Assembly (NCBI GenBank): GCA_045601505.1
Contig: JAZRZS010000029.1
Location: forward strand, 1 to 43,626
Direction: 5' to 3'
Source: Acutalibacteraceae bacterium
Lineage (GTDB): Bacteria > Bacillota > Clostridia > Oscillospirales > Acutalibacteraceae
DNA length: 43,626 nt
Shown here one piece after another: positions 10,802 through 42,094 of the stretch. Below the pieces are notes generated by a model that saw nothing but the letters and a program-made list of their open reading frames with translations, made no database searches and was not told where the DNA came from. Both the position numbers and the translations under genes were made by a program. How positions within the stretch are numbered: the stretch's first letter is position 1; the number at the start of each line of letters is the position of its first letter.

Positions 10802-12253
10802 GTGAACCAATTAAATGATAAACGCAAAAGTTATGACACATGGGAAGAGGCCTTTAAAGGCCTCGCTCCCGTTGTTCGTCAACAGTCGGTCAGAATAGCG
10901 GCATACACACAGGCACTCTATGTTCAAGCCTGTGAAAGCGGTTTCGGTGCAAAGTTTGCAGGCGGTGCCGAGCGTATGCAGTCTTCTTATGCCAACCTGG
11001 CCTTTAAGTGCGGTATGTATCATCAGTTGGGTAAGGCGCTTGTCCCTCATGAGTATCAAATCCTTGAGGTTGGCTTTTCAGATGAGGAAACAGCCCTTTA
11101 CCGTAAGTATACAACCGAGGGCCGTCGCCTTGTTGCCGAACTTCAGGAAAAGGGTTCGGGCAATAAAAATAAGAATGTTCAGGGCGAACCTTTCACCGAT
11201 AAAATACCATGGCTTATGATTCGTGAGAGTTGTCAGCAGCATATGGAAAGGTATGATGGCACAGGATACCCTGACGGACGTGCAGATAAGGCAATCAGCC
11301 CTATTGCTCAGATAGTGGGCATGGCAAAGATGTTTGATCATCTTTCTGCAGAAATAAAATCGGAAAATCCGTTTTCTGAAGCCTGCGAATCCATACTTGA
11401 TGAGAGCGGAAAGGCTTTTTCGCCTGAACTTTGTGAGGTCTTTAAGACCGCTAAAAGTAAGATACACAATATATATAATAAATATATTCATTACACAATG
11501 AAGTTGCCGCGCACGATTCCTCTTGTTAAAAAAGCAAAGGGAAGACCTATGGGTCTTGCTTACCGCTCTTTGACAGGCGGCGATTTCACCACAGTTGCTT
11601 ACGAGGCTATCCCATGGTTTAAAACCAAGGAAGGAGAGAGGGCAGACATTGCCGAAATAGGACCGCGTCTTGCAAGGACGGGACTTACTGTGGATATGAC
11701 CTTCTATCTTCTTTATGAAGCGGCGGATACACTGCTTCGTATTCAAAACTGTGAACTTGATTTAAAGTATTTGTTAGTAAATATGTTGCCCGAGTTTTAC
11801 AGTAGGCAAAGTTACTTAAAGCGTTTTGAGGAACTGTTCTCAAATCAGCCGGTAGATCGTTCCCGTCTGTTGCTCACAATTCCCGAAAAGTTTGTGCTTG
11901 GCGCAAACAAAGGCGAAACCGAGATAATTTGCCGTTACCTTAAAAACGGAATTGCTTTGGTGCTTGACGATTATCATCCCGAATCCATATCTCCTGCAAA
12001 ACTTAAAGAGTTGGGCTTTTCTCATGTGCGTTTATCACCTGAGACAAGCGCTAAACCGCTGTATGCTTCTGATGTAAGGGCGCTTATGGACCGTAATATC
12101 ACGGTGTTTGCCTCCTGTGCAGAACACCAGCACCTTAAATGGCTTGCCGAAAGCGGCGTTTACGGCGTAAGCAGTCAACTTAACGGAGAAACTGTGGATG
12201 AGGATACCGTTATTCGTGACACCTTGTTGCGAGAGCGAGGCACTACGGTATGA
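10802..12253 (+). CDS. Degenerate HD-GYP domain + degenerate EAL-like domain protein (putative c-di-GMP sensor)
   Basis: GTG start lies 6 nt after GAGGGA. HD-GYP boxes are HQLGK (the HD box has become HQ) and HMERYDGTGYPDG (HHE has become HME). The EAL-like half has AYEAIPW (EAL-R changed to EAI-P), LLLTIPE (in place of EitE), LDDYHPE (in place of DDFGTG) and RLS (in place of KiD). Confidence 0.75.
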   Translation: MNQLNDKRKSYDTWEEAFKGLAPVVRQQSVRIAAYTQALYVQACESGFGAKFAGGAERMQSSYANLAFKCGMYHQLGKALVPHEYQILEVGFSDEETALYRKYTTEGRRLVAELQEKGSGNKNKNVQGEPFTDKIPWLMIRESCQQHMERYDGTGYPDGRADKAISPIAQIVGMAKMFDHLSAEIKSENPFSEACESILDESGKAFSPELCEVFKTAKSKIHNIYNKYIHYTMKLPRTIPLVKKAKGRPMGLAYRSLTGGDFTTVAYEAIPWFKTKEGERADIAEIGPRLARTGLTVDMTFYLLYEAADTLLRIQNCELDLKYLLVNMLPEFYSRQSYLKRFEELFSNQPVDRSRLLLTIPEKFVLGANKGETEIICRYLKNGIALVLDDYHPESISPAKLKELGFSHVRLSPETSAKPLYASDVRALMDRNITVFASCAEHQHLKWLAESGVYGVSSQLNGETVDEDTVIRDTLLRERGTTV

Positions 12254-13248
12254 GTATGGACAACTACCGTGAAAATGATAAACAGCGAAGGCTGATAAAT
12301 AAAAAGCGCGCGGGAATTGTACTTACCGAAACCGAGGTAAAGGAAATTATTGAAGGCCGCAAAAAATTGCGTGCTGATATGAAGGCGCAGGGTGCTTACA
12401 CTAAACGTGAGTTTGAACTTACAGCATCAAGCCTTGGCTTTTATTTCGACAAGGGCCGATTTTTAGGTCTTTGGCTTTGGTTATGGCATAAGGGCGTTAT
12501 TTGGGGCGTTCTCGGTGCGGCGATTGCAACATTGCTTGCGATGTATGGATTTTCCATTGTTACCGAAATGAGAGGACACTTCACAATAAACTTGGCAGAT
12601 GAATTAGTTAACCAAGGTTTTGAACTTAGCAATACTGCGGATTTCGCAAACCCAACTGCCAGAATATACGGCACACCTGTTGAGGATGCTCCGTGTATTT
12701 CAATTGCGGATTTGCCTGATAATCTTGATGCGATTGACGGTTCGCATAACGGACGAAACTATTTCGCGCATACCTTTTATCTTTCAAAACGCGGTGAAGG
12801 CACGGTGGATTACGCTTTCGAATTATCCGTTAATTCTGAAAGTCTTAACGCTTCAGATGCTATTTGGGTTATGCTTTTTGAGGATTCGGTTCCCACAATA
12901 TTTGCTAAAGCAAACAAAGAAACTGGCGAAGCAGAATGTCTTCCTGCAAAGGATAATGACCGTGTAGGTTATGTTAAGATTCCCTTTGCTGAGGACGGGC
13001 TTGGCTCTGAACAGTTTGAGGTTGTCCGTGAAACACCAACCAGAAAATACTTTCGTCTCATACCGAAGAGATTTAAAGACAGTAAAGTTGTGACCGATAG
13101 TATTGTGGCAGATGTTGCACAGGACGAAGTACATAAATATACCGTTGTTATCTGGCTTGAGGGTGATGATCCTGATTGTACAGATGACATTATAGGCGGT
13201 CATATCGGTATGCAGATGGATTTTGAACTTCTGGATATCAGCGAATAA
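12250..13248 (+). CDS. Family member 'D': bitopic membrane protein with a ~75-aa cytoplasmic N-terminus, a TM helix and the extracellular core of the unnamed WLEGxDxDC family
   Basis: Its ATG overlaps the stop of the upstream gene (ATGA at 12250-12253). TM is VIWGVLGAAIATLLAMYGFSIV, followed by TEMRGHFTINL. The C-terminal motif is VVIWLEGDDPDCTDD...GMQMDFEL. Confidence 0.8.
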   Translation: MSMDNYRENDKQRRLINKKRAGIVLTETEVKEIIEGRKKLRADMKAQGAYTKREFELTASSLGFYFDKGRFLGLWLWLWHKGVIWGVLGAAIATLLAMYGFSIVTEMRGHFTINLADELVNQGFELSNTADFANPTARIYGTPVEDAPCISIADLPDNLDAIDGSHNGRNYFAHTFYLSKRGEGTVDYAFELSVNSESLNASDAIWVMLFEDSVPTIFAKANKETGEAECLPAKDNDRVGYVKIPFAEDGLGSEQFEVVRETPTRKYFRLIPKRFKDSKVVTDSIVADVAQDEVHKYTVVIWLEGDDPDCTDDIIGGHIGMQMDFELLDISE

Positions 13249-13265
13249 TTTAAATTCGGTTTTCA

Positions 13266-13298
13266 ATTTGCTTTGTGACTCTAACCCACAAAGCAAAT
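13266..13298 (+). other. Perfect 12-bp stem-loop between genes D and E
   Basis: ATTTGCTTTGTG (13266-13277) pairs with CACAAAGCAAAT (13287-13298) around a 9-nt loop. There is no T-run, so it may be an mRNA processing or stability element rather than a terminator. Confidence 0.45.
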
Positions 13299-13362
13299 CA
13301 GAATATAATTTCTCCGACGGGAGATAAAGACGTAATTTTTTAAAAAAGTGAGGTAAATTGTG

Positions 13363-15402
13363 ATGAACAAACAACAGATGAATGAAATGTCTTCCCTTCG
13401 CAATAAGCTGTTTGCTGCGGTTGCAATGCTTTTAGTGGCTTGTATCATGGCGGTATCGTCCACTTATGCATGGTTCACATTGTCAACAGCTCCCGAAATT
13501 AAGGGAATCACAACCACCGTTGGTGCCAACGGTAACCTTGAAATTGCATTAGGTACTTGGGATACCGTTTACGGTGTTGCAACTCCCGGTTCTGCTGAAG
13601 GCGATTCAATGGATAAGGATGGCCAGTTAGTTACTGCTGCCAATATTACCTGGGGTAACCTTATCGATCTTATGGATGAGTCCTACGGGTTAGGCGCTAT
13701 TAAGCTTTATCCTTCACGCCTTAATGCTACGAAGGCTGACGGCGCTTTGGGTATCTTAACACAGGCATTCTCACCCTTGGCATTCCCAAAATATGGTACA
13801 GACGGTCGTATTACTGAATTGGATAGAAACACTATGATCGGTAAGTACAACCAGACTGCTGGAGGCTTTATGGCTTTGGGTACTCCTAACTATGCAGGTG
13901 TAAATGCTATCGGTTCTGCTTCTTCTATGACAGAGCGTGAATTTGCAGTTCGTAATAACAAGAACGCTATCGAAAGCAACAGAGTTAAGGCTAAGGCTGA
14001 GGCACAGGGCGCAATTAACCTTTACTCAGGTGACCTTGCTGCTATTGCAATCGATAACATGAGCAGTGGTGACGATGCAGTTATTTCTGCTGATGATGTT
14101 GCAGTTCTTAAAAATTTGATTGTTAAGCTTGAAGCTTCTAACGCTGCAATCGGCGATTCTATCAAGTCGGCCATTATGCTTTTCTTAGCAAGCAGCAGCA
14201 GCACTCTTACTGATACTGCTTGGAAAGATGCTGTTTCTGTTCTTTCCAGCAAATCTCTTGAAGAAACTGTAGCCCATTTGCAGTCTCTTACAGGTCTTGC
14301 AACTCTTCCCACCGCTGTAAGTGATCTCGTTGGCAAGTATACTTCAATTAAATCAGATCTTGCTGCTGCAAAGGCTGTATTACCCGAAAGCGGCGATACC
14401 ACTTGGGGCGTAGTTGGCGATGCAGTTGGTACATTGCTTAACGCAAGCGGCATCTTAATCTGCAACGAAACTATTGCTGACATCAAAAATACTAAGGATA
14501 GTCCTGAGGCTGACACTGCATTCAAGAGAGTTACTGCTGCTGTTCTTAGCGGCGGTCTTGAATTCCAGTTCAAGTCTGATAGTGGTATCTTTGCTGATAT
14601 CGCTGAAATGACTGGTGAATACGGTGCTACCATCAACTTCCCTGAAGGTCTTGAAGTTGAAGGAATTCCGCTTGGCGGTCTTAAGAAGCCTGTTACCGTT
14701 GAAAGCGGTAGCCTTAACACCGCAACCGGTGAATTGGGTCTTATGAAGCAGGGTGTTGACGGTTTGGCAGCTCCCGGTGCCGACCCCAATGCTGAAAAGG
14801 CTCTTACCGATACATACGGTTACACAATTGATATGCTCTTCCGTACAAACGCAAGTGATTCATATCTTCAGTTGCAGACTGCTGCAGCAAACCGCATCTA
14901 TGCAGGTAATAACAACGAAGCTATCATGGGCGGCGGCAGCAATATGACCTTTACTATTGAAGGCGAATACACTAAGGCTAAGATCGATGGCATTGCTGCC
15001 GGTATCCGTGTTGTATTCTATGAAACAACCGAGGCAGCAGGCGGCGCAGCAACCATTTTAGGTGTTGCTACATTAGATACCGATAACGGTGTTGTTTCGA
15101 GTAACAACTATATGCTCGACCTTAATCTTATGGATTATTCAATCACCAACGGCATTATGCAAATTGGCGATGTTATGGTTGATGATACAGATACTGTTGC
15201 TAACGAAGCAGTAGCACTCAAGGCTTTGTCTGCTAATACTATAACAAAGGTTACCGCTCTTGTATATCTTGACGGCGATGTTATTGATAACGGTGATATC
15301 GGTGTTGCAGGATTACTTAACGGTAAACTCAATCTCCAGTTCTCTTCAAGCGCTACATTAACTCCTATGAACAATAACAGTTTAATGAACGCTGCCAACT
15401 AA
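13363..15402 (+). CDS. Family member 'E' (679 aa): SipW-type signal peptide protein, long form with a helical insert
   Basis: ATG 13363 lies 8 nt after AGTGAGGT. Signal is LRNKLFAAVAMLLVACIMAVSSTYA/WFTLSTAPEIKGITTTVGANGNLEIALG. Shared motifs are YGTDGRI, GYTIDMLFRTNASDSYLQLQ and ALVYLDGDVIDNGD...GKLNLQFSS. Confidence 0.85.
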   Translation: MNKQQMNEMSSLRNKLFAAVAMLLVACIMAVSSTYAWFTLSTAPEIKGITTTVGANGNLEIALGTWDTVYGVATPGSAEGDSMDKDGQLVTAANITWGNLIDLMDESYGLGAIKLYPSRLNATKADGALGILTQAFSPLAFPKYGTDGRITELDRNTMIGKYNQTAGGFMALGTPNYAGVNAIGSASSMTEREFAVRNNKNAIESNRVKAKAEAQGAINLYSGDLAAIAIDNMSSGDDAVISADDVAVLKNLIVKLEASNAAIGDSIKSAIMLFLASSSSTLTDTAWKDAVSVLSSKSLEETVAHLQSLTGLATLPTAVSDLVGKYTSIKSDLAAAKAVLPESGDTTWGVVGDAVGTLLNASGILICNETIADIKNTKDSPEADTAFKRVTAAVLSGGLEFQFKSDSGIFADIAEMTGEYGATINFPEGLEVEGIPLGGLKKPVTVESGSLNTATGELGLMKQGVDGLAAPGADPNAEKALTDTYGYTIDMLFRTNASDSYLQLQTAAANRIYAGNNNEAIMGGGSNMTFTIEGEYTKAKIDGIAAGIRVVFYETTEAAGGAATILGVATLDTDNGVVSSNNYMLDLNLMDYSITNGIMQIGDVMVDDTDTVANEAVALKALSANTITKVTALVYLDGDVIDNGDIGVAGLLNGKLNLQFSSSATLTPMNNNSLMNAAN

Positions 15403-15430
15403 TTATTATCAGTTTTCAGGTTAATACTGT

Positions 15431-15475
15431 GCGTCTGCCTGCGGTTTCCCGCAGGCAGACGCCAGATGGTGTTTT
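15431..15475 (+). terminator. Strong GC-rich hairpin after gene E (terminator or attenuator)
   Basis: Perfect 14-bp stem GCGTCTGCCTGCGG / CCGCAGGCAGACGC with a TTTC loop, followed by CAGATGGTGTTTTCGG, which is only a weak T-tract. Confidence 0.55.
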
Positions 15476-15621
15476 CGGCAGGATTGTGGTTAGAGTGTAT
15501 ACTGCTGCCATTGGATTCTGATAAGTTATTTGTTTAAAAATTCCATATTTAGTTTGAAAATAAAGCGTTATCCGTTAATTCGGGCATCGCTATATCGTTG
15601 CTTTTAGGGAGGATGATTATT

Positions 15622-16629
15622 TTGCGCCTGTTTTGGCACGAGCAACAAGACCAAAAGAGGAAAAAGAGAACTCTTATTCTGCTTTTGATTGCATTGTTGT
15701 TGATTTTACTTCCGCTATGCACTGTGGCTACTTATACGTGGTTGGGTATCAGCAAAACCCCTAAAGTCAGCGATATGGAGATGACAATTAACTGCGACCC
15801 AGGACTGCAACTTGCCTGGGATATTGAGGCAGAAGATGACGAGTGGAAGCAACAACTCGATTTTACCGATGCAGTAGGTACAGATACGTTGCTCACCCCT
15901 GTTACCTGGTCGGACAAGGAGAAGAGTTTTTACACCGCAAAGTTCGGGGCAGACGGCAGAATAGTGGATATAGGCGTTCGTCTGTCGGACGAAAAAGACT
16001 CTAACGGCAGAGACGGACACTACGTTAAATTCACCTTTTATGGAAGAACCGAACAGGAGGTTGAGGTTTCGCTTTCGCCTGCGGTATCAGCCAGTGATGA
16101 CGGCAGTAAAAGTGCAGGAACCTATCTTTTGGGAACACCCCTATGGCAAGAAAATTCTAAAGCTCATAAAGATGGCGGTCAGGGTGCTCAATTTGCAACC
16201 CGCGTGGGTTTTATTATTTCAAAAATCAATAACGAGGGAGTAGTTACCTCGCAAAAACCGATGCTGATATATGAGCCAAATTGCGACAGGCATATAGACG
16301 GCAGTTCTGGATATGTTGACACTCCGTCTATTGACGGCTTTGAAGATTTAGTCGGTGCGGACAGATTGATAAAGCAAACCACTTCCCACTGGGAAGAGGG
16401 ATATCCTGTTGAGCGGGATGTGATTATAAGAGATTTAGGTGTTTTTGAAGACGATGTTACACTGTTCCAACTTGATAATAATGAAAAGGTGAAGATTGAT
16501 GTTTACGTCTGGCTTGAAGGTATGGATGTTGACTGTGTGAACGTCTTGGGAACAGGAGCGCAATTCTTTGCTAATCTTCAGTTATCTGCTATTCCGGATA
16601 ATCAGTCGGGATTGGTGCCCATTCAGTAA
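15622..16629 (+). CDS. Family member 'F' (~335 aa): SipW-type signal peptide protein, short form
   Basis: TTG 15622 lies 9 nt after AGGGAGG. ATG 15613 abuts the RBS and TTG 15598 is the longest ORF start, so the start is uncertain. Signal is KRKKRTLILLLIALLLILLPLCTVATYTWLGISKTPKVSDMEMTIN. Motifs are FGADGRI, GHYVKFTFYGRTEQEVEVSL and VYVWLEGMDVDCVN...FFANLQLSA. Confidence 0.8.
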   Translation: MRLFWHEQQDQKRKKRTLILLLIALLLILLPLCTVATYTWLGISKTPKVSDMEMTINCDPGLQLAWDIEAEDDEWKQQLDFTDAVGTDTLLTPVTWSDKEKSFYTAKFGADGRIVDIGVRLSDEKDSNGRDGHYVKFTFYGRTEQEVEVSLSPAVSASDDGSKSAGTYLLGTPLWQENSKAHKDGGQGAQFATRVGFIISKINNEGVVTSQKPMLIYEPNCDRHIDGSSGYVDTPSIDGFEDLVGADRLIKQTTSHWEEGYPVERDVIIRDLGVFEDDVTLFQLDNNEKVKIDVYVWLEGMDVDCVNVLGTGAQFFANLQLSAIPDNQSGLVPIQ

Positions 16630-16725
16630 AAAACGCTGTGCGGTTTTTAATATAGTAATTCAATAGTATATTCTTGGGATTTTTAGTCTCAGGAGTTTGT
16701 ATTGGAATATAAAAGGAGAGGTTTT

Positions 16726-17535
16726 ATGAGCCAGAAAGAGAAAAACATCATTGCAACCCCTAAAACTGTACCCCAAACGGACGGTAGCACTGCAGTAGAA
16801 AGCAAGCCTGCCAAGAAAAACAAGGTGTTAAGCAGTATTATCAATGTTGTTTTGGTAATAGCGATTGTTTTGGCAATTATGGCAACCTATGTATCATACG
16901 TTTCTACATCAGGTAGCGGAGTTCCAAGTATTTTGGGTATGAGACTGTTTTCTATACGTACAGACTCAATGTATGATACCCTTATGCCAGGCGATTTAAT
17001 TATTGACACCGCGGTTAAAGACCCCGAGAGTCTCAAAAAGAATGACGTTATTACCTATTGGACCGTTATTGACGGCGAACGAGTTCTCAATACTCACCGT
17101 ATTGTTGAAATTTATGACGGTAACGGCTTCCTCATTTTTGCTACAAAGGGTGATAACAACAGCACAGTCGATACATTGACCGTTCACGAATCGGAAATTG
17201 TTGGTAAGTATTCCTTCAGAATTCCCGGTGTCGGTAAGGCTTTTGATTATTTGCAGACCAGCACAGGTTTCCTTATTGTTGTTGTTATTCCTGTGGTTAT
17301 ATTCCTGATTTATCAGTTGATTCAGTTCTTCCGCGTGCTCTTTGAGTATCAGAATGTTAAGAGCAGAATTCGTTTTGAAATGGAACGCGGACGTACAGAA
17401 GACCTCATTGAAGAGCAGAACCGCCGCGAAGAAGAACTTAAGCAGGCGGAACGTGAAAAAATAGAGGCAGAATTGCGCGAAAAGATTCGTGCTGAACTTA
17501 TGGCTGATTCCGAACAAAAAGAAGATAAAGAATAA
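16726..17535 (+). CDS. sipW: SipW-type (ER/archaeal-type, S26B) signal peptidase I with a C-terminal TM and charged coiled-coil tail
   Basis: ATG lies 4 nt after AAAGGAGAGG. Catalytic boxes are RTDSMYDTLMPGDLII, NTHRIVEI and ATKGDNN. A second TM is GFLIVVVIPVVIFLIYQLIQFF. The tail is EMERGRTEDLIEEQNRREEELKQAEREKIEAELREKIRAEL. Confidence 0.85.
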   Translation: MSQKEKNIIATPKTVPQTDGSTAVESKPAKKNKVLSSIINVVLVIAIVLAIMATYVSYVSTSGSGVPSILGMRLFSIRTDSMYDTLMPGDLIIDTAVKDPESLKKNDVITYWTVIDGERVLNTHRIVEIYDGNGFLIFATKGDNNSTVDTLTVHESEIVGKYSFRIPGVGKAFDYLQTSTGFLIVVVIPVVIFLIYQLIQFFRVLFEYQNVKSRIRFEMERGRTEDLIEEQNRREEELKQAEREKIEAELREKIRAELMADSEQKEDKE

Positions 17536-17578: not shown

Positions 17579-17662
17579 ACTGCGCTTAAAAGACTATTTT
17601 GCAAATCAATAAGAATGTAAAATCACTTGTTTCAGGCGGATGGATTTTTGGAGGTGAACCTC

Positions 17663-19243
17663 TTGACAGATAATTTTTTCAGATATTTCTATGAGGATAT
17701 AGGACGTGTGTTCGGCGCTTTATGGGAGGTTTTCCTTTCAGTTTTCAACTTTTTTAACTATCTCATTAATTTTCCTATGCGAATGAAGTTAATAAAATCG
17801 CACTCCGCTGATTTTGGAATAGTTGATTGGATTTTGTTACTTGTCGCCCACATTATACTCATTGCTCTGACGGTGGCTTTAATCGTTGTGTTAGTAAAAA
17901 CTTTCCGCCACATTTTCAGATTCAGAGTGCCTGTCAAGAAGTATGATGAGGTGGTTCGTCAGGTTAAGCAACTTCAACGAGACCTGATAAGAGCAAATTA
18001 TGAAAAGGATAAACTTTTATCCCTTAAGGTTGCTGAACTCGGCATTAATCCTGATGAGGTATTGGTTGACTCGCTTTATGAAGAAAAGCAGGCAGAAGAA
18101 ATCGCAGAAGTCAACAGCAAGCGCAACACCAGAACCTCTCCTTGTGTAGATCCTGCTTCAAGCCGTTTTTTCAGACTTACCTCGGTGGATAATTATTATA
18201 AAACAGAATATGTTGTTCCAACCTATAATAATAACATTTCGTTAGAAGAATTTTGTGAACTTTTCAGAAAATTTTCTGCATCAAAACTCGGTCTTTATTA
18301 CGACCTTGACCTTATACGTTATTTTATTGCTTCACTCGGAACCTCAAGAATTGTAATATTGCAGGGTATTTCGGGTACCGGTAAAACCTCACTTGCGTAT
18401 GCTTTCGGTAAGTTTGTTAATAAAGATACCACTGTGGTTCCTGTTCAACCTTCGTGGCGCGAACGTACCGAACTTTACGGTTACTTTAACGAATTTACAA
18501 AAATTTATACCGAGACCGACTTTTTACGTGCGGTATATGAAGCAAACTATTACCGCGACCCGCACATTCTTATCCTTGATGAGATGAACATTGCACGTGT
18601 TGAGTATTACTTTGCGGAAATTTTGTCTATCCTCGAAATGCCGCTTGAGAGCGAGTGGAATATCGATATTGTTACTGCTATGTGGGATAATGACCCGTGT
18701 CTTATCGAAAACGGTAAGCTTGCTATCAGTAATAATATCTGGTTTATCGGTACTATCAACAACGACGACTCGACCTTTGCCGTTGCCGATAAGGTTTATG
18801 ACCGTGCAATTCCTATCGACCTTGACAGCCGCGCAGACAAGTTCGAGTGCGAAGAAACCGACTCGATATTCGTAAGCACCGACCATCTGAACGCTTTATT
18901 TGCCGAAGCAAAAGAAAAATATCCGATTTCACAGGATATACTCGATAAAATTGATGAGGTAAATAATTATCTTATTGCAAATTTCCGTCTGGCATTCGGT
19001 AACCGTATTATGAAGCAACTTTGTGATTTCGTGCCTTGCCTTATCGCTTGTGGCGGAACCGAAATTGAAGCGGTTGACTTTATGATTGCCAAAAAGGTTT
19101 TGCGTAAGTTTGAGTCTCTGAGCCTTGGATTTATGAGGGATGAATTAACGCGATTCAATTCATATCTTGACAAGGTGTTCGGCAAAAACAGTATGAAGAT
19201 TTGTAAAGAATATATTGACAGTTTAAAGAAAAATGCTAACTAA
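17663..19243 (+). CDS. Membrane-anchored McrB-like AAA+ (GTPase-type) NTPase
   Basis: TTG 17663 lies 8 nt after GGAGG; the track start is 17627. The N-terminus has hydrophobic segments (VFGALWEVFLSVFNFFNYLINF and IVDWILLLVAHIILIALTVALIVVLV) and a short coiled coil. The McrB-type core has Walker A GISGTGKTS, then VQPSWRERTELYGYF, Walker B ILILDEMNIARVEYYFAEILSILE, and WFIGTINNDDSTFAVADKVYDRA. Confidence 0.8.
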   Translation: MTDNFFRYFYEDIGRVFGALWEVFLSVFNFFNYLINFPMRMKLIKSHSADFGIVDWILLLVAHIILIALTVALIVVLVKTFRHIFRFRVPVKKYDEVVRQVKQLQRDLIRANYEKDKLLSLKVAELGINPDEVLVDSLYEEKQAEEIAEVNSKRNTRTSPCVDPASSRFFRLTSVDNYYKTEYVVPTYNNNISLEEFCELFRKFSASKLGLYYDLDLIRYFIASLGTSRIVILQGISGTGKTSLAYAFGKFVNKDTTVVPVQPSWRERTELYGYFNEFTKIYTETDFLRAVYEANYYRDPHILILDEMNIARVEYYFAEILSILEMPLESEWNIDIVTAMWDNDPCLIENGKLAISNNIWFIGTINNDDSTFAVADKVYDRAIPIDLDSRADKFECEETDSIFVSTDHLNALFAEAKEKYPISQDILDKIDEVNNYLIANFRLAFGNRIMKQLCDFVPCLIACGGTEIEAVDFMIAKKVLRKFESLSLGFMRDELTRFNSYLDKVFGKNSMKICKEYIDSLKKNAN

Positions 19244-19272
19244 ATAATTATTCTATAGAAAGGGTGGGGGTT

Positions 19273-21057
19273 ATGTCTGAAACGTCTGCTTCTAAAAGCA
19301 AGAATACAAAGGCTAAAAAAACTGCAGTTATTGATGCTGTATATCAGAAATATACCAAGGGCGTTATCCGCACATTAGCCAGCACCGATTTCTATGAATT
19401 TTTTATGGATATGATAGAGAGGGCTGAAAATGAATTTCAGTTCTCAAACCGCAGATGCGAAAAGGTTATAGATCCTAAATGGGTTGACGCGGTGGATAAT
19501 TCGCTTGTGGGATTTCAGAATATTATTTCAAATCCCCGTAACATCATCAAGGAAGAAGAACTGATTGTAAACGTAGCTCACGCCAAAAAGGGCGGTCAGG
19601 ATGTTGTACGTCATCTCGCGCAACATGGAAACTTTGTATCTTCTTTTGATTATGAAACAAGGGAAGTCAAACCTAATAAACTGATGCAGAAACTCAGAGA
19701 GGATTCCAACGAGCTGTACGAAAACCGCTTTGTTTACACGATTTTGGAATCTGCCCATCACTTTGTGAAAATTCGTTATGAAGCACTCTTTAACGCTATG
19801 GGTGATGAGTTTGGTGCAAAACTTAAAATGCAGTCCGACCTTGACTGCGCCAGCGAAACCATTCACTTTGATATGTTTATGCATATCAAGGATAAGCAAA
19901 GTGTTCTTGAGATTGACGAAAAATGCGGCGATATGCTGTCAAGCGTTGCCAGACTTTACCGTGTGCTCACTATGTTTATGGCGTCCCCATTTGCTCAGCA
20001 AATGTCACGTCTGCCGCGTGTTAAGGGTGCAATCACCAAAACAAACGTGCTTAAAAAACACCCTGATTATAAGTTGATTGTGAAACTCTGGGAGTTTCTT
20101 AAGCAGTATGATGCTGTGGGTTACGCCCTTAAAATTACCGAACAAAATCCTCAGATTACCGAAAGTTTTCAAAAGGATTTGTTCCATAATATTATGTATC
20201 AGTACATTGTGCTTAAAGGTTATCTTGAATCCGAACAGGACCGTCAGGTACCTGTGCCTTTAAAGCAGAGAAAGCGTACCTTGAAGCCAAAGTTTATCCG
20301 TGAGATTATCGAAGAACTCACTGAAGACTATGACCTTCCTGATATTGAAGTCAGAAAGGTATTAATAGAGCAGCTTACTAAGGAACAACTTATGCTTGAA
20401 GAGGCAGAGGAACGCCGCCGTTTAGTTGCTGAACAGGAGCGTCAGAGGAAAGAAGAGGAAGAAAGACTCCGCCTTGAAGCAGAAAAAGAAAAGGAACGTC
20501 TGCAAAAGGAAAAAGAGGCCGAACTCGAACGAATCAGACGTGAAAAAGAGGCAGAGGAAGAAAGACTTCGCGTCCAACGTCTTGAACAGGAGAATATTGA
20601 CCGTTACTGTGCTAATGTTTACGGTAAAGAAATTGAAAAACTCTTAAGGTCATTGCCACTTCAACTTGAACTTCGCAAAGAAGCGGAGGAAAAGGAAAAA
20701 ACGGTTACAAAGTCTGATTTTGAAAACGCGGTTGAAGAAATGGATGCCGCCGAAAAGCGCCGACTTTCACGTGCTGAACGTGAGCGCCGCCGTTTACAAG
20801 AAGAACGTGAGCGTCTTGAACTGGCAAGGCAGGAAGAAGAACGTTTGCGCTTGGAAAACGAGGCGCGTTTATTAGAACAACAGAGTATTGAAGATGCTGA
20901 GAACGTTAAGCATTTCCTTGTAATTCTTAGCGCTTTTGAAGACGAACTTGTGGTGCAGAAATATGAACGTCAGGTCTACGTTTCAAGAATCTGCGAAGAA
21001 AAAGAACGATTTGAACGCGAACGAAAAGAATGGCGTGCGCGCAAATCGGTTGGTTAA
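19273..21057 (+). CDS. McrC-N/DUF2357-like protein lacking a nuclease domain, with a ~230-aa Glu/Arg/Lys-rich coiled-coil C-terminus
   Basis: ATG 19273 follows GAAAGGG. The N-terminal ~330 aa carry ENRFVYTILESAHHFV and TNVLKKHPDYKLIVKLWEFLKQY, which resemble the McrC N-domain/DUF2357 signatures ENRf and d.rY...lW. The C-terminus is EERRRLVAEQERQRKEEEERLRLEAEKEKERLQKEKEAELERIRREKEAEEERLRVQRLEQE...RRLQEERERLELARQEEERLRLENE. I saw no PD-(D/E)xK motif. Confidence 0.65.
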   Translation: MSETSASKSKNTKAKKTAVIDAVYQKYTKGVIRTLASTDFYEFFMDMIERAENEFQFSNRRCEKVIDPKWVDAVDNSLVGFQNIISNPRNIIKEEELIVNVAHAKKGGQDVVRHLAQHGNFVSSFDYETREVKPNKLMQKLREDSNELYENRFVYTILESAHHFVKIRYEALFNAMGDEFGAKLKMQSDLDCASETIHFDMFMHIKDKQSVLEIDEKCGDMLSSVARLYRVLTMFMASPFAQQMSRLPRVKGAITKTNVLKKHPDYKLIVKLWEFLKQYDAVGYALKITEQNPQITESFQKDLFHNIMYQYIVLKGYLESEQDRQVPVPLKQRKRTLKPKFIREIIEELTEDYDLPDIEVRKVLIEQLTKEQLMLEEAEERRRLVAEQERQRKEEEERLRLEAEKEKERLQKEKEAELERIRREKEAEEERLRVQRLEQENIDRYCANVYGKEIEKLLRSLPLQLELRKEAEEKEKTVTKSDFENAVEEMDAAEKRRLSRAERERRRLQEERERLELARQEEERLRLENEARLLEQQSIEDAENVKHFLVILSAFEDELVVQKYERQVYVSRICEEKERFERERKEWRARKSVG

Positions 21058-21132: not shown

Positions 21133-22491
21133 ATGAAAAACTTACTTTTAAAGTTAATTACAATTGGAATGTTCATTGTGCTTACATTGGTAATAGTGGT
21201 TGCTTCTTCGTATGCTTGGATGAGTATGTCTACTTCGCCTACAATGTCAGGCTTGCAGATTAAAATCGGCGGAAGCAATACCATTTTGATTGCACCTGAT
21301 ATCACCAAAACGGTGGAAGGGAATATTATTCATTATCCGGGTGAATTTTCCGCTTCAATGAATTTTTCCAAACAAAATAACTATGCTTATCTGCAAAATC
21401 TGGTTGATTTATCGCCCGTTTCCACTGCAGACGGTATAAATTGGTATTTCCCCGCATATTACTCATCTTCCGAAGAAAATTCCGCAAATGACGGAACACT
21501 TCGTGAGATTTCGGACTTTTTGCTGGACGATACAATGTTGTATGCAAATTTAGAAGAACTTCCTGCAGATGATTCGGTTAACGGTTGCTATGCCGCCATA
21601 GATTTTTGGGTGGTTTCGCCTGCAAACTGCAATTTGCGCGTTTCGGTTGGGGACGGTGACGGCGGAAGTTACCTTATTAATCTCCCTCAACCTATAGATG
21701 ACGAAAACGGTAGTTATAAACTGGATATGAGCAATAAACTGTTGGCTTCCTGTGCGCGTGTAGGCTTTCTTGCAAATACCCACACGGTTAAGGATTTGTC
21801 TATAAATAATTACATTAACAGTCCGAAATATAACACTCATTACCGTTCCTTGAGGGGTATTTATCAGGAAAAGGGCGGGGAGAAAAATTATCATCCCGCT
21901 GAATTCACAATATATGAGCCTAATGCCAATTATCATCATGAGGATGGGGCGTATACTTTATCGAGAGACGGCAAGAATTACCGCCTTTGCGAAAACGGCA
22001 GTTATGTTGTGACAAAATCTATTGGAAATGTTGACGGTGTAGCACAACTTGTGGATGTGTCAGGCCGTACTACAGTTCAGACATCGTCTGACTGGAGTTT
22101 GATTAATGAAAACGATTATCACATTGAGCAGATTTTTCAGGCATATTTAGCAGGTGTTCAGTCTCCTGAGCTTGATATATTGGCTGACGGGTTCTATAGA
22201 CGTTATTTAGGCTATCAGTGCAATACATATCTGAATAAGGGCTCATTTATTAAAAATACTGAAAATTTAATCCGTGCCGCTGATGGTGACGGTGTGGTGG
22301 AACCCGATATATTTAATGCGCTTAATACCCACGGCGCAACCGATGACATTGTTATCGTGGGTCTTGAAAAGAATATTCCTCAGCGTATCAGGATGTTTGT
22401 CTGGATAGAGGGACAGGACATTGATTGTGCAAAGGTCGGCAGCACAGGCGGACTTATGCTTAATCTTGAATTGGCGGGTAGCGCAGAATAA
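21133..22491 (+). CDS. Family member 'I' (452 aa): SipW-type signal peptide protein, short form
   Basis: Signal is KLITIGMFIVLTLVIVVASSYAWMSMSTSPTMSGLQIKIGGSN. Motifs are PVSTADGINWYFP, CYAAIDFWVVSPANCNLRVSV and MFVWIEGQDIDCAKVGSTGGLMLNLELAG. Confidence 0.8.
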   Translation: MKNLLLKLITIGMFIVLTLVIVVASSYAWMSMSTSPTMSGLQIKIGGSNTILIAPDITKTVEGNIIHYPGEFSASMNFSKQNNYAYLQNLVDLSPVSTADGINWYFPAYYSSSEENSANDGTLREISDFLLDDTMLYANLEELPADDSVNGCYAAIDFWVVSPANCNLRVSVGDGDGGSYLINLPQPIDDENGSYKLDMSNKLLASCARVGFLANTHTVKDLSINNYINSPKYNTHYRSLRGIYQEKGGEKNYHPAEFTIYEPNANYHHEDGAYTLSRDGKNYRLCENGSYVVTKSIGNVDGVAQLVDVSGRTTVQTSSDWSLINENDYHIEQIFQAYLAGVQSPELDILADGFYRRYLGYQCNTYLNKGSFIKNTENLIRAADGDGVVEPDIFNALNTHGATDDIVIVGLEKNIPQRIRMFVWIEGQDIDCAKVGSTGGLMLNLELAGSAE

Positions 22492-22523: not shown

Positions 22524-23318
22524 GTGAAAACGGAAGATGGAAATAAAACCGAATTCAAACTACGGTTGGCTTCTGGATTTACGACGCTGTTATTAATTGT
22601 GGCTATTGTATGTTGTCTTTTTTTTACACTGCAAAGCCTTTCTAAAGGGTATGTTTCCTTTGGCGGCACAAGTATTTTCCGTGTTGTGACGGGAAGTATG
22701 GAACCGCAAATTCCTGTTGGTGCACTGTTAGTATCCCAAAAAGAAGATATAGAAAAAATTTCGGTTGATGATATAGTTTGCTTCCGCTCCAAAGAAGCGG
22801 GGACGCGAAGCATTATTATAACCCATCGCGTTGTCGGTATTTTTACCGCCCCCAATGGCAAACCTTTATTGCAGACAAAGGGGGATGCAAATCTCAGCGT
22901 GGATGCGGAATATGTTTCCGAAAAAAATTTGATAGGCCGTGTAACATGGCATTCGGGGGTTGGAAGTAAAGTGGCGACAATTATTAGTTTTTTAACCAGC
23001 GATTTCGGATTTTTAGCATGTATTATTCTGCCTGTAATCCTTATTGCAATTATCGTATTCCGCAATGCTATCAAGAGTGTGAAAAATGCGATTATTGTTG
23101 CTCAAAAACAGTTGGAAGAACAGAATTCGCAAAGCAAAATCAAGGCAGAAATTTCTAAAGAAGAATACGAGGAAATGTACTTAAGAATTGCCAAAGAAGT
23201 GAGAGAGGAGTTGGAGCAGGATGCTGAAAAATCAGTGGAACAAGATGAAAAAAATGCTTTTGAATCGTGTGACACAGTTGAAGCAAATGCAACTGCTTCA
23301 ACAGATGAAGAAACTTAA
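22524..23318 (+). CDS. sipW: SipW-type signal peptidase I, second copy, with a C-terminal TM and charged tail
   Basis: GTG start follows GAAGGTG. Boxes are VTGSMEPQIPVGALLV, ITHRVVGI and QTKGDAN. The second TM is FGFLACIILPVILIAIIVF. The tail is AQKQLEEQNSQSKIKAEISKEEYEEMYLRIAKEVREELEQDAEKS. Confidence 0.85.
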   Translation: MKTEDGNKTEFKLRLASGFTTLLLIVAIVCCLFFTLQSLSKGYVSFGGTSIFRVVTGSMEPQIPVGALLVSQKEDIEKISVDDIVCFRSKEAGTRSIIITHRVVGIFTAPNGKPLLQTKGDANLSVDAEYVSEKNLIGRVTWHSGVGSKVATIISFLTSDFGFLACIILPVILIAIIVFRNAIKSVKNAIIVAQKQLEEQNSQSKIKAEISKEEYEEMYLRIAKEVREELEQDAEKSVEQDEKNAFESCDTVEANATASTDEET

Positions 23319-23394
23319 AAATCTTATTTTAAACGGTACAACCGAAGAAATAAACAAGGAAAATGAAACAATAGAACAGCACCTGAGGCGAGGT

Positions 23395-25260
23395 ATGATT
23401 CAAAAGGGCGGTCTGGCGGCGGTGGCTGTAGTTTTGGCAGTTGCAATGGTGTTTGCTATGACTGCCGCGTGGTATAGCAACGTTATTCAGACCACAGGTC
23501 TTATCTTCAATGTTTCCGAATGGGGACTTGAATCGGGTGTGAATATTGAAAACGAACTGAAAAACGCCGCACCCGGTGAGAGCGGTAAGATTGCACTTGA
23601 AGTGCACAATTCGAGTGACGGTATAATTGATGTTAACCTTAATATTGATAAGGTTGGATTATATAATGATATCGGCGATATGCGTAAGCGTTTGTACTTT
23701 TATATTGATGATACTGCTCAGCGAAACGATGAAACTGTAAACCGCGTGTATCTTAACAGCGAGGAAGAATATTCATATACAGTTCTGGCAAAACAAAAAC
23801 TCATTTTAGGCGAACAGGGTAATAATTTTCCGCTTATGTGGGAATGGGTTTATGATGTTTTGGGGTACTATTTTTATGGCACTGTAACCACCTCTTCTAC
23901 AGCAGAAATTGAAGAATATCTGCGCCCTGTTATATATGATTACGATGCTGCAACATTTTCGAACGGTCAACTTGCAACGGTTGACGGAAGCACAACAGCA
24001 ACAAACTTTATAGCTGAGATTACCGCGAATGACGGGTATGCAGGCACAACTTCAAGAACAGTAAAGAGTTCTGACGGCAAAATTTATTATCCTGTTGAGA
24101 TTGACGAAAACGGCAACGGCGTGTGGATTTATTGCTGCACACTTGGCGAAATCCAGTATGAAAACGTTGTGGATACAAATCTCGGTAATGCTGAGCAGGA
24201 TTTGCGCCGCTTCAGAACTAATCTTAATGTTCTGGCACAGCAGAAGAAACTGACTGTGGCAACGGTTAATTCTGTTGATGAGTTTAAAACCGCATTAGCA
24301 GACGATACACACAATATGGTTGTTTTATCAAATGATATTGTTTTGTCTGAAAAGTTAACAATGGCGCCAGGCAACGAAAAAATTGTAGACCTTGCAACAC
24401 ATACCATTTCAACCGATTTAACAGGGACCCTTGTTGATGCCAAAGAAGGTGCTTCGTTTACACTTATGAACGGTGCAATAAAGGGTAATGATTCTCATTC
24501 CGGAACACTCTTTTCTATTGTGGGTAGCGATGTGGCATTAAGCGGTATGACTATTACCGATGTTGCGGAGGTTGCCAGAATTGCTGATAACGAATCTTCA
24601 AATAATGACACAAAAATGAACATAGTTGATTGCACCATTAATTGTTCGACTTTTGGTATATCTATAAAAGGTAACGGTCCTATAAGTCAGGGTGCAACGT
24701 ATCTTAACATAGAAAACAGCGAGATTATAAGCACCGGCTCATTTGCGCTTGTTGGTAACGGAAGCGTGCTTAAAAACGGTAACTGGGGAACTAATATCTG
24801 TGTTAGCGGAAGTACTCTTAAGGCTAAACACAGTGGTATATATCATCCCCAGCCGGATAGTGTTCTTTTAGTTAAGGATAGCATTATCGAAGGAATGACA
24901 CCGTTTGTTGTAAAGGGTGGCACAGTAACTATTGAAGATACCGAAATCAAAGCAACAAATGATGAAGGAACACAGGAAGAAATACAAGAGCCTTCACTTG
25001 GTGTTAGCGGATATGCAGACACCGGTGCTGCACTTTATGTTGAAACAGGCTATAATTACCTTTGCGATGTTACTTTAATCGGTACGAATAAGTTGACCAG
25101 TTATTACAGTGAAGCAATTTTGCTTTATATGAAGGATAACGAAAATTATAGTATTAAAGTTTCGGGCGGCGATTACAGCCACGATGTTTCTGAATTCCTG
25201 GCAGACGGTTATGTTTGCAAAAAGAATAATGAAAACCGATATGAGGTAACCGCGAAGTGA
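23395..25260 (+). CDS. TasA/camelysin-like N-terminal domain fused to a beta-helix domain (~621 aa)
   Basis: ATG 23395 lies 6 nt after GAGG. ATG 23305, overlapping the sipW-2 stop, is an alternative. Signal is GGLAAVAVVLAVAMVFAMTAAWYSNVIQTTGLIFNVSEW. NAAPGESGKIALEVHNSSDGIIDVNLNI parallels NLKPGD...FENNGSLAI in TasA. The C-terminal half has repetitive beta-helix-like turns and ends GGDYSHDVSEFLADGY. Confidence 0.75.
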   Translation: MIQKGGLAAVAVVLAVAMVFAMTAAWYSNVIQTTGLIFNVSEWGLESGVNIENELKNAAPGESGKIALEVHNSSDGIIDVNLNIDKVGLYNDIGDMRKRLYFYIDDTAQRNDETVNRVYLNSEEEYSYTVLAKQKLILGEQGNNFPLMWEWVYDVLGYYFYGTVTTSSTAEIEEYLRPVIYDYDAATFSNGQLATVDGSTTATNFIAEITANDGYAGTTSRTVKSSDGKIYYPVEIDENGNGVWIYCCTLGEIQYENVVDTNLGNAEQDLRRFRTNLNVLAQQKKLTVATVNSVDEFKTALADDTHNMVVLSNDIVLSEKLTMAPGNEKIVDLATHTISTDLTGTLVDAKEGASFTLMNGAIKGNDSHSGTLFSIVGSDVALSGMTITDVAEVARIADNESSNNDTKMNIVDCTINCSTFGISIKGNGPISQGATYLNIENSEIISTGSFALVGNGSVLKNGNWGTNICVSGSTLKAKHSGIYHPQPDSVLLVKDSIIEGMTPFVVKGGTVTIEDTEIKATNDEGTQEEIQEPSLGVSGYADTGAALYVETGYNYLCDVTLIGTNKLTSYYSEAILLYMKDNENYSIKVSGGDYSHDVSEFLADGYVCKKNNENRYEVTAK

Positions 25261-25276: not shown

Positions 25277-25792
25277 ATGCAGTTTAAGTGCAAAAAAATA
25301 AGTTTGATATGCCTGCTTGCACTGTTGGTTGTGGTTATTTTTAGTGTGGGCACCGCTTATGCGAGATACAAAACTTCAATTAACCAGACTATAATTTTTG
25401 AGACAAAACTAATAGATGATTCGGGCAAAATTGTTATCAGCTCGGCAGATGGTTGGGTTGAAGGAAATAACAATCTTACCCTTGATTTCGATCTTTCGGG
25501 CGGCGATGCAAAGTCGGGCAGAAAGGCATATCTCCGCCTTACTGCAACCGAAAATTTGGATACATCAGCAACGGTGACCCTGAAGGTTGACGGGGTTGAG
25601 TATCAAGGTGTGCCTTATAGTGTTGAAAACGGCGAACTGCTGCATTTTCAGATGGGTAACGGCACAGAATACCGCTTTATGAGCGAAAATGATGAAATTT
25701 ATTGGAAGCTTTCCGATAAAAAGAGTATGAAACTTACAGTTAGCGGTAAGGGCAATAAATCCCTTTTGCGTTTGGTGGCAAAGGAAAAATAA
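25277..25792 (+). CDS. Small SipW-type signal peptide protein (171 aa), candidate fibre subunit
   Basis: RBS is TAAGGAGG. Signal is KKISLICLLALLVVVIFSVGTAYARYKTSINQTIIFE, which compares with GGT[WYF]A.F.D in TasA/CalY. The mature part is about 140 aa and beta-rich. Confidence 0.7.
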   Translation: MQFKCKKISLICLLALLVVVIFSVGTAYARYKTSINQTIIFETKLIDDSGKIVISSADGWVEGNNNLTLDFDLSGGDAKSGRKAYLRLTATENLDTSATVTLKVDGVEYQGVPYSVENGELLHFQMGNGTEYRFMSENDEIYWKLSDKKSMKLTVSGKGNKSLLRLVAKEK

Positions 25793-25804
25793 GGAGGAAA
25801 CGCA

Positions 25805-27034
25805 GTGACTGCTTTGGGCAAAATTAATCGTATAATGCTGTATGTGGCTGTTGATGTACTTATCTTAGCGGTTATTGCCTTCAGTTGCTTAGGGTTCGCT
25901 CAGGCACGATATAACAACGGCGACATTTCTTCCTATGTGTACGGCACAGAGAAGGTTGATGTCTGCACAATGAGTGAAGAAGGCAAAGTATTTGACTTTG
26001 GTATATGGCAGTTAGGTCAGGGTGACAGTTTTTCTTCCACCGTGATTATTGAAAGTCGGGATGCTTTGAGAGGAACACTCAGGTTTTCACTTGATGAGGA
26101 TACGGCAGATGTTAACGATATTGCAATTCAGATAGACGGTGTCTTTTCATCAAGCCACGGGGAGTACACAGTTAACGAAGAAGACGGTCGTTTAGAATTG
26201 CCGTTCAGCGTTTTCATTTCTCCGACAAACCGAGTGGCTACCGCCTATCTTGATGTTGAGTGGATTGAAAACGGCAGTTCAGAAGTGGCCATGTCCTCAA
26301 GGTATCTTATGGCACTGAATGCCTTTTCAATTGAAGACAAAAACGCGGTTACAGTTGACCAGAACAATACAAAGTTTTTAACCAATGATTTATTGAACGT
26401 GGCAGTTGAAGTTACCGACACGGCAGAGGGTGTCATATTGGCGCCAGGTTCAATAATAACAAATAAATTTTCGGCGGGTATGAAATATTATACCGACCAA
26501 TATCCGCAGGGTGTTATCCTGTTAAAAAGCAGTGCATTGTATTTTTCAGACCTGCAAAACGGAAAACTTAACACGGTTTTAGACCTTGGCGATTATACGG
26601 CTGAGAGCCCCATTAGTTTAACTGCAGGGTTTTCTGAATCAAAATATGTTGTGACCTCGCAAACACCGCTTTCGGTTACAAAAACTTTAACGGTATCAGT
26701 CGAGAAAAAAACCGTTTTATCCCACACAAAGCCGCTTACTGTAACCTTGGAAGAAGCGGCAGCCCTGAGCGACAATGAATGGAATGTGGACGGTTCTGAA
26801 AAATCGGAACTTGAATGGCAGATTGAAAGACTTGTGAACGGTAAATATGTTGCGGTGGAAACAAGTAAAAATCTTACAGTATTGAAAAAACAAACCAATA
26901 ACACGGGCGAGTTGGTTTTATCTACCCCCACGGGCGACCAACCAGCAGGTACGTATCGTATTAAGTTTACACAAAAGTATAACGGATACACAGTAGGCAC
27001 AGAATTTTCGTGGTTCTTTATAGATTATCGTTGA
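25805..27034 (+). CDS. SipW-type signal peptide protein (409 aa)
   Basis: GTG start follows AAGGAGGA. Signal is IMLYVAVDVLILAVIAFSCLGFAQARYNNGDISSYVYG. The body is beta-rich and ends GTYRIKFTQKYNGYTVGTEFSWFFIDYR. Confidence 0.7.
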   Translation: MTALGKINRIMLYVAVDVLILAVIAFSCLGFAQARYNNGDISSYVYGTEKVDVCTMSEEGKVFDFGIWQLGQGDSFSSTVIIESRDALRGTLRFSLDEDTADVNDIAIQIDGVFSSSHGEYTVNEEDGRLELPFSVFISPTNRVATAYLDVEWIENGSSEVAMSSRYLMALNAFSIEDKNAVTVDQNNTKFLTNDLLNVAVEVTDTAEGVILAPGSIITNKFSAGMKYYTDQYPQGVILLKSSALYFSDLQNGKLNTVLDLGDYTAESPISLTAGFSESKYVVTSQTPLSVTKTLTVSVEKKTVLSHTKPLTVTLEEAAALSDNEWNVDGSEKSELEWQIERLVNGKYVAVETSKNLTVLKKQTNNTGELVLSTPTGDQPAGTYRIKFTQKYNGYTVGTEFSWFFIDYR

Positions 27035-42081: not shown

Positions 42082-42094
42082 GGAGGTGATACGC

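Follow-up and report, generated by a model that had tools for sequence, protein, structure and literature searches.

In the TasA and camelysin fibre systems (tapA-sipW-tasA in Bacillus subtilis, sipW-tasA-calY in B. cereus and sipW-bsaA in Clostridium perfringens), a SipW-type signal peptidase gene adjoins genes for secreted beta-rich proteins. Their signal segments end in a motif resembling [GST]-[TS]-x-A-[WYF]-[FY], which is followed by a conserved strand, and several paralogous subunits are encoded per locus, including one with an anchor or accessory role. Here we describe a locus with comparable traits in a 43,626-nucleotide stretch of an Acutalibacteraceae genome (assembly GCA_045601505.1, contig JAZRZS010000029.1; hereafter the window). 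The locus encodes four paralogues, E, F, I and N, and a C-terminal relative, D, which may play a TapA-like role. We establish that these proteins represent a membrane-inserted or secreted beta-domain family that is strictly linked to SipW-type peptidases (G and J) and to a McrBC-like nucleoside triphosphatase (NTPase) pair (H1 and H2). The likeness to TasA is partial, however, as TasA subunits have ~200-260 amino acids compared with 300-1500 here, the motifs W-x-E-G-x-D-x-D-C-x-N and Y-E-P-N are absent from TasA, and TasA systems lack an NTPase pair.

Similar themes are known from more distant organisms. The archaeal filaments joined by donor strands (the thread protein Saci_0406, AbpA of the archaeal bundling pili (ABP), the cannula proteins CanA and CanX, and AbpX) combine Sec/signal peptidase I signals, an N-terminal donor strand, a beta-sandwich or jelly-roll fold and paralogous cap or minor subunits, and in cannulae and AbpX assembly also depends on Ca2+. 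For the TasA superfamily, Ca-dependent filaments built with donor strands have been reported next to signal peptidase genes (10.1101/2024.12.30.630787), and our analogies to strand-linked fibres draw on TasA (PMC9674648) and the threads (PMC9715654). In contrast to the archaeal subunits, to which similarity is weak, the proteins described here are bacterial, much larger and accompanied by an NTPase. The type V pili of Bacteroidia (FimA-E, Mfa1-5) are likewise built from five diverged paralogous subunits (stalk, anchor and tip) and join by strand exchange once proteolysis has removed an N-terminal segment, but they consist of lipoproteins of diderm bacteria processed by Arg/Lys-specific proteases, and we found no sequence or fold match to them.

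The NTPase pair points to a further system. Bell et al. (eLife 2024, PMC11090510) delineated a large clade of McrB-like GTPases with an FtsB-like transmembrane and coiled-coil fusion and with coiled-coil McrC partners, branching among CoCoNuT-like systems. They named it CoCoPALM, predicted a role in pilus assembly and deferred its description to a later paper; we found no such paper, and no CoCoPALM details in supplements of the CoCoNuT paper. Our locus agrees with that outline in belonging to Bacillota and in having a McrB-like AAA+ NTPase with an N-terminal transmembrane and coiled-coil-like segment (H1), an adjacent DUF2357 coiled-coil McrC homologue (H2) and signal-peptidase-family genes (G and J), whereas PMC11090510 mentions no secreted paralogue family, D-like anchor, HD-GYP gene or giant surface proteins. 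A first-pass annotation of the window, made from the sequence alone, had recognized the protein family and missed the H1/H2 pair within the operon.

A family of diverged paralogues

The five proteins are encoded as follows:
D, 12250..13248, plus strand: partial family member, candidate membrane anchor or base subunit
E, 13360..15402, plus strand: long-form member, by profile alignment of E with N and of the E core with F
F, 15598..16629, plus strand: short-form core member, archetype of the wider family
I, 21133..22491, plus strand: short-form member, an F paralogue with extra loops
N, 27053..31681, plus strand: long-form member with a ~800-amino-acid beta-rich C-terminal extension

The first-pass annotation had proposed that all five are paralogues defined by four collinear motifs. 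All-against-all BLASTP within the window recovered E-N (8.5e-27 and 1.2e-8), E-I, F-I and F-N (each ~1e-6) and, marginally, D-I (0.011). We then compared profiles with hhalign, using ortholog-group alignments of 15-31 sequences from open reading frames (ORFs) called in 33 syntenic loci of public genomes and metagenomes. E and N aligned with 100% probability (E 8e-76, 603 columns), E residues 7-679 corresponding to N residues 12-734, such that N spans the whole of E, and F and I aligned over their full length (99.9%, E 1.6e-33). Unrelated controls (B, G, H2 and P) stayed at noise level.

Comparison of the long with the short forms depended on the stretch between motifs 2 and 3. When it was kept, E or N matched F or I at 97-98% over the N-terminal 54-110 columns, and their C-termini compared alone placed motif 4 in register with a weak 44-60%. 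When it was removed, the E and N cores aligned end to end with F and I over 287-358 columns (97.4-98.4%, E 1.4e-11 to 9e-15), the aligned region taking in motifs 1 and 4, YG.DGR, the strand of motif 3 and the closing N-[LI]-Q-F strand (E-F 98.3%, E 2.5e-14, 287 columns; E-I 98.4%; N-F 98.1%; N-I 97.4%). Thus, we conclude that E and N are F-type proteins carrying an insert of ~335 amino acids, which bears out the earlier suggestion that the long forms are short forms with an insertion. Motifs 2 and 3 are separated by 338 amino acids in E and 336 in N, compared with 20 in F, 52 in I and 4 in D. Chou-Fasman scoring of the insert was uninformative and did not confirm a helical state. The extension of N lies beyond its E-like part.

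The relationship of D is more restricted. D matched F only over ~88 C-terminal columns, which take in motif 4 as well as the final strand (94.8%, E 5e-8 with alignments of 37 and 38 sequences; 92-94% in other runs), and matched I in the same way at 84-88%. Against E and N its profile gave no significant match, remaining at noise level, and motifs 1-3 of D received no support from profile comparison. D-like proteins of four distant loci match the F model at the same C-terminal place (~1e-6), and the partial homology of D is therefore real. Thus, the proposed five-member family stands for E, F, I and N, with D as a C-terminal relative.

The family has no name in current resources, and the first-pass annotation had likewise not assigned it one. 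Pfam and NCBIfam scans assigned no family to any of the five proteins, to their N-terminal fragments or to 60 distant relatives, and PDB sequence searches with single proteins and profiles gave no match. The homologues found (181 for F and 1276 for D) are all labelled 'hypothetical protein' and come from metagenome-assembled genomes (MAGs) of Clostridia, and a search for named relatives that started from a profile of distant members gave the same label only. An exhaustive search with the F profile recovered 2958 clusters at 50% identity, 742 of them at E<=1e-10. Members at 21-29% identity carry no Pfam domain, except for one fused to a leucine-rich repeat (LRR)/DUF285 region. The family is so far confined to uncultured gut and rumen Clostridia.

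Conserved motifs and the N-terminal segment

All motif strings quoted in the first-pass annotation are present and collinear in the five ORFs at the coordinates listed above, and in E, F, I and N they align significantly between profiles. Their residue positions are:
D: motif 1 107-117, motif 2 161-169, motif 3 174-188, motif 4 301-310, terminal strand 321-327
E: motif 1 46-64, motif 2 145-151, motif 3 490-506, motif 4 635-644, terminal strand 657-663
F: motif 1 57-67, motif 2 116-122, motif 3 143-157, motif 4 304-313, terminal strand 325-331
I: motif 1 38-48, motif 2 97-103, motif 3 156-170, motif 4 423-432, terminal strand 443-449
N: motif 1 51-69, motif 2 135-141, motif 3 478-494, motif 4 690-699, terminal strand 712-718

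The family motifs are invariant across 38-60 homologues. E illustrates the full arrangement, with a signal segment ending STYAWF, the conserved first strand, YGTDGR, the insert, the C-terminal core, VYLDGDVIDN and NLQF; motif 4 of D reads WLEGDDPDC. As had been noted, the motif-4 Cys is kept in the short proteins D, F and I and lost in the long proteins E and N, and in distant relatives its conservation is 90% or higher. The 14-mer GCTCTTGTATATCT, previously pointed out as shared by E and N at motif 4, occurs at 15256 (E) and 29114 (N) and nowhere else. Within ortholog groups, column identity is highest in the cleavage motif plus first strand (0.60-0.86) and in motif 4 plus terminal strand (0.67-0.81), compared with 0.48-0.64 overall. 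Relatives at 21-29% identity retain A47-W48, P101, E226-P227 (within Y-E-P-N) and W305-x-E-G-x-D-x-D-C-x-N (F numbering). A fifth motif, [IF]-Y-E-P-N-x-[DN]-x-H, lies at residues 225-232 of F and 261-268 of I; it is invariant in F and I orthologues and absent from E, N and D.

Each protein has a single hydrophobic segment, which is N-terminal and preceded by a basic n-region in E, F, I and N, and lies at residues 82-105 in D. In the former four it ends in [ST]-[YF]-[AT]-W-[FILM], followed by a conserved Ser/Thr-x-x-Pro and a beta-strand. Conservation of the h-region itself is low (0.36-0.60), in contrast to the nearly invariant motif that closes it on the C-terminal side. By eye, this end resembles what we take to be the SipW-type cleavage region of TasA and camelysin. 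The 'N-terminal helix' assigned to motif 1 in the first-pass annotation is thus better described as a hydrophobic signal or anchor segment ending in a putative SipW/TasA-type cleavage motif. K and three small proteins encoded in the compact loci described below share this ending, and a related form occurs in L and M, the N-termini of which end GTAYARY and FAQARY.

No C-terminal LPxTG, lipobox or type IV pilin motif was found in D, E, F, I or N. The sole regular-expression match to the class III signal pattern G/A | F/M-x-x-x-E (GIVLTE at D residue 22) is cytoplasmic, lies ~60 residues before the transmembrane segment at 82-105 and was not counted. Prepilin peptidase and PilB/PilC-type Pfam families were found in no ORF of the locus, and no sortase domain in the scanned ORFs of the window. 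The Lgt-like gene O follows N in several species, though the secreted proteins have no conserved lipobox; that O might act on the lone conserved motif-4 Cys is pure speculation.

Predicted structures

The AlphaFold2 model of F (pLDDT 88.9, pTM 0.82) has a helix at residues 2-51 followed by an all-beta domain, and that of D (pLDDT 85.4) also has a helix followed by an all-beta domain. In both, the strand of motif 1 comes before the hairpin of motif 3, the strand of motif 4 and lastly the terminal strand. In D, a conserved cytoplasmic N-terminal region (residues 1-78, with helices at 27-80) is followed by a single transmembrane segment (82-105) and by a beta ectodomain that includes motif 4; the Y-A-W motif is missing. 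Judging from its sequence and model, D is probably an uncleaved bitopic membrane protein.

Foldseek, run against PDB with both models and against BFVD with that of F, gave no significant neighbour, and no PDB match reached E<1e-3. The top PDB match of F was the donor-strand-complemented thread pilin of Sulfolobus acidocaldarius (7pnb_A), which is weak (E 8e-3, prob 0.93, TM 0.39 on target). D matched generic sandwiches, with the ABP pilin 7ueg at rank 31 (E 3e-2), also weak. As neither F nor D has a significant Foldseek neighbour, we do not claim the TasA-like jelly-roll fold that had earlier been raised for the family.

A conserved locus with signal peptidases and an NTPase pair

The family genes lie in a long plus-strand block (1633-34213) on a background of ~41% GC that is Clostridia-like. 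The locus order is C-D-E-F-G-H1-H2-I-J-K-L-M-N-O, and the remaining genes are:
C, 10802..12253, plus strand: HD-GYP-type HD_5 domain (Pfam 4e-13) and EAL-like domain (Pfam EAL 3e-11)
G, 16702..17535, plus strand: SipW/ER-type signal peptidase I (TIGR02228 8e-24; NF046067 SipW 6.7e-30)
H1, 17627..19243, plus strand: membrane-anchored McrB-like AAA+ NTPase (Pfam AAA_5)
H2, 19264..21057, plus strand: McrC-N (DUF2357)-like partner with a long E/R/K-rich C-terminal coiled coil
J, 22524..23318, plus strand: second SipW/ER-type signal peptidase I (TIGR02228 1.6e-21)
K, 23221..25260, plus strand: secreted protein with an MTAAWYS N-terminus and a probable beta-helix domain, outside the family
L and M, 25277..27034 (L 25277-25792, M 25805-27034), plus strand: second, separate paralogue pair of small secreted proteins
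O, 31705..32379, plus strand: Lgt-like membrane protein (Pfam LGT 7.5e-13), end of the conserved block

The order persists in roughly 20-30 species; C through J are kept in 20 loci, and all five family members in 13. The carriers are species-level MAGs obtained from the gut of humans, goats, sheep and buffalo and labelled, among others, as Acutalibacteraceae, Oscillospiraceae and Lachnospiraceae. Its best-conserved genes are G (60-81% identity across loci), H1 (66-82%) and H2 (50-77%), compared with 30-60% for the paralogues, and SipW-type peptidases are conserved in every locus with enough sequence. G and J are related (BLASTP 2e-18) and both carry catalytic Ser, His and Asp, in G within DSMYDTL, THRIV and GDNN. 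Around distant family members with 21-29% identity we found a compact locus consisting of HD_5, D-like, F-like, H1, DUF2357 and SipW genes, three small secreted proteins and a protein of 3300-3500 amino acids; here too the D-like gene precedes the F-like gene, and a shorter, HD_5-only gene sits before the D-like gene. Among locus variants, one has two tandem E-type genes (L025, 41-4695), one is rearranged with N-O-P before I-J-K and E after (L029), and one that is more distant has a short (~300-amino-acid) E-type gene and the order D-E-F-I-SipW-H1 (L033).

H1 has a hydrophobic transmembrane segment at ~60-97, a heptad-like, charged stretch resembling a coiled coil, a Walker A motif (GISGTGKT) and the motif INNDDS. 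It matches Pfam AAA_5 (1.2e-5), Escherichia coli McrB (6hz4, E 3e-4 over residues 232-395) and the PADLOC candidate PDC-M26A (4.8e-41). Its G-T-I-N-N-D-D-S stands opposite G-L-M-N-T-A-D-R-S of McrB and fits an NxD followed by D/E, the shortened signature that in CoCoPALM replaces NxxD, but the ungapped alignment can also be read as NxxD. Pfam FtsB/DivIC gave no hit in H1 at E<=0.01. Syntenic orthologues of H2 carry PF09823 (DUF2357), and the H2 profile matches them at ~1e-85; its C-terminal 250 amino acids are E/R/K-rich, their sole and weak PDB matches are coiled-coil proteins, and no transmembrane segment was found in H2. D, F, G and H2 had no PADLOC match.

The 3' end and stop codon of C overlap the start of D. 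The HD_5 and EAL-like domains of C, this overlap and the HD_5 gene before the D-like gene suggest control by cyclic di-GMP (c-di-GMP), and from its sequence C is likely a c-di-GMP-linked regulator of the operon. An upstream c-di-GMP riboswitch was ruled out, the sole Rfam hit being a tRNA gene at 156-228 (64.6 bits), which renders the ORF at 60-416 that contains it spurious. A strong terminator-like hairpin lies at 1273-1301, upstream of gene A.

The first gene of the operon (1633-9558) encodes a 2641-amino-acid secreted protein with a C-terminal type I dockerin and a Cys-rich repeat block (C-T-E-x-G...C); no cohesin was identified in the window. In addition to this giant and the beta-helix protein K, whose orthologues match Pectate_lyase_5 and Beta_helix weakly, the operon codes for a BspA-type LRR protein. 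L and M are related to each other (hhalign 94%, E 1.4e-7), and the match of I to K (75%) is limited to the signal region. With 171 amino acids, L is comparable in size to the major subunits of TasA- or thread-like fibres, and it could be the actual fibre subunit. Two start codons are likely miscalled: F orthologues, one of them 99% identical with 335 amino acids, begin ~8 codons later, and the K ORF overlaps the end of J by 98 nucleotides, its start probably lying further downstream near MIQKGG.

The flanks of the window hold housekeeping genes and a phage lysis remnant. The latter, at the edge (41063-42349), comprises Peptidase_M15 with a peptidoglycan-binding domain, DUF2951 and a Hol44-type holin, and is unrelated to the family. 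A phage origin of the locus, suspected from the 2641-amino-acid ORF, was ruled out by the identity of that ORF as a dockerin surface protein, the housekeeping flanks and the chromosomal synteny.

Discussion

The reading that we favour, at about even confidence, is that D, E, F, I and N all belong, as paralogues that have diverged, to a single unannotated family of extracellular beta-sandwich proteins, that they are the cargo of a CoCoPALM-type locus, and that they make up a surface fibre after processing by SipW. E, F, I and N insert into the membrane by means of the one hydrophobic segment at their N-terminus, and the resemblance to TasA and camelysin sites, together with the presence of two peptidases, suggests that G or J may cleave between Ala and Trp in the conserved [ST]-[YF]-A-W-[FYM]. 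Cleavage would then expose the highly conserved N-terminal beta-strand. By analogy, the subunits may join into a cell-surface fibre or appendage through this strand and the strand-loop-terminal strand of motif 4, with donor-strand exchange, as in TasA, threads and cannulae, as the likely assembly mode. The acidic E-G-x-D-x-D(-C) loop is a putative Ca2+ or inter-subunit site.

Distinct roles can be suggested for the individual proteins. F would represent the ancestral core subunit and I a second short subunit, whereas E and N would be long forms, N with its 800-amino-acid extension being a candidate distal or adhesive subunit. D, which keeps the C-terminal module, may stay in the membrane as anchor or base. 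H1/H2 could control or energize assembly from the cytoplasmic side, and C may tie expression or assembly to c-di-GMP. The proposal of the first-pass annotation that the five are structural subunits with distinct roles fits the two SipW-type peptidases, the synteny and the retention of five paralogues in 13 loci; it stays plausible, short of proof.

Several observations weigh against this reading. No significant sequence or fold match links the family to TasA, camelysin, threads or any pilin. As a further difference from TasA, PF12389 and TIGR04088 gave no hit at E<=1 with full proteins, at E<=10 with N-terminal fragments, or in 60 distant members; all Foldseek E-values exceeded 1e-3 with TM-scores of at most 0.39, and TasA itself lay outside the top 50 PDB matches of F and D. 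F has Thr instead of Ala at the presumed -1 position of the cleavage site, and the membership of D rests on 88 columns. TasA-type fibres need no NTPase, which leaves the role of H1/H2 unexplained, and relatives of McrBC are otherwise defence systems.

The proteins might instead be independent secreted or surface binding modules (adhesins, or carbohydrate- or matrix-binding domains) that are processed by SipW without polymerizing and differ in ligand, an alternative that we regard as rather unlikely. It would account for the Foldseek neighbours, which are mostly lectin-, carbohydrate-binding module (CBM)- and PA14-like sandwiches (concanavalin-type lectins, CBM32, CBM61, and accessory domains of glycoside hydrolases GH31 and GH3), for the company of dockerin giant, BspA-type LRR and beta-helix proteins, and for the distant member fused to LRR/DUF285. 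However, all of these fold matches are non-significant, and conservation peaks at the N-terminal strand and the C-terminal strand-loop-strand rather than at a surface pocket. Additionally, D-like and F-like genes strictly accompany H1, H2 and SipW, which suggests assembly rather than free binders. We consider it still less probable that the locus serves in conflict or defence as part of the McrBC/CoCoNuT lineage, with the secreted proteins coupled to the GTPase as envelope sensors or effectors. The McrB-like H1 with its PADLOC match, the DUF2357-like H2 and the placement of CoCoPALM among CoCoNuT-like systems (PMC11090510) all invite this view, yet neither a nuclease nor another effector domain was detected, and D, F, G and H2 have no counterpart in PADLOC. 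The 30 kb of mostly secreted, structural-looking proteins, the c-di-GMP-type regulation and an order conserved across species in a chromosomal housekeeping context, which is not island-like, also argue against it. An inserted defence island can be ruled out, as H1 and H2 are among the best-conserved genes and always lie inside the operon.

Improbable to a similar degree is the idea that pilin-like subunits retain their N-terminal helix and are extracted and packed helix to helix by the H1 NTPase, like type IV pili, while SipW acts on other substrates. The long N-terminal helix before the beta domain in the AlphaFold2 models and a membrane-bound NTPase as the best-conserved gene of the locus would suit such a mechanism, but a class III signal motif (G|F...E), prepilin peptidase and PilB/PilC-type genes were not found, and a poorly conserved h-region with a near-invariant end motif agrees with a cleavage site rather than with a helix packed into a core. 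Lastly, we give almost no credence to chance similarity among unrelated secreted proteins. In its favour are the noise-level match of D to E and N and the loose definition of motif 3. Against it speak the hhalign probabilities (97-100% among E, F, I and N, ~95% for D-F) and the invariance of the motifs in 38-60 homologues, and for E, F, I and N chance is ruled out.

Beyond SipW-processed fibres as such, we raise as a tentative possibility an undescribed class of Gram-positive appendage, in which SipW cleavage and strand exchange would be coupled to a McrBC-derived membrane motor or switch. This would amount to an NTP-dependent pilus pathway, widespread in gut and rumen Clostridia, with D linking fibre and motor. 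The family is new to databases and sits within a system that has been named but not described; it varies the theme of SipW-dependent fibres, with a real chance of a new assembly pathway.

Our data bring to light a family of ~3000 clusters (at 50% identity) that is invisible to Pfam, NCBIfam and the PDB, and the secreted proteins would supply the missing cargo of CoCoPALM loci, which until now had only been named. The W-x-E-G-x-D-x-D-C-x-N, Y-E-P-N and Y-A-W cleavage-type motifs offer handles for a new family model and for mutagenesis. If fibres do form, they would represent a new route to Gram-positive surface appendages, in which a restriction-type GTPase has been recruited to envelope assembly, and would add new determinants of adhesion and biofilm formation in abundant commensals (Acutalibacteraceae, Oscillospiraceae and Lachnospiraceae MAGs).

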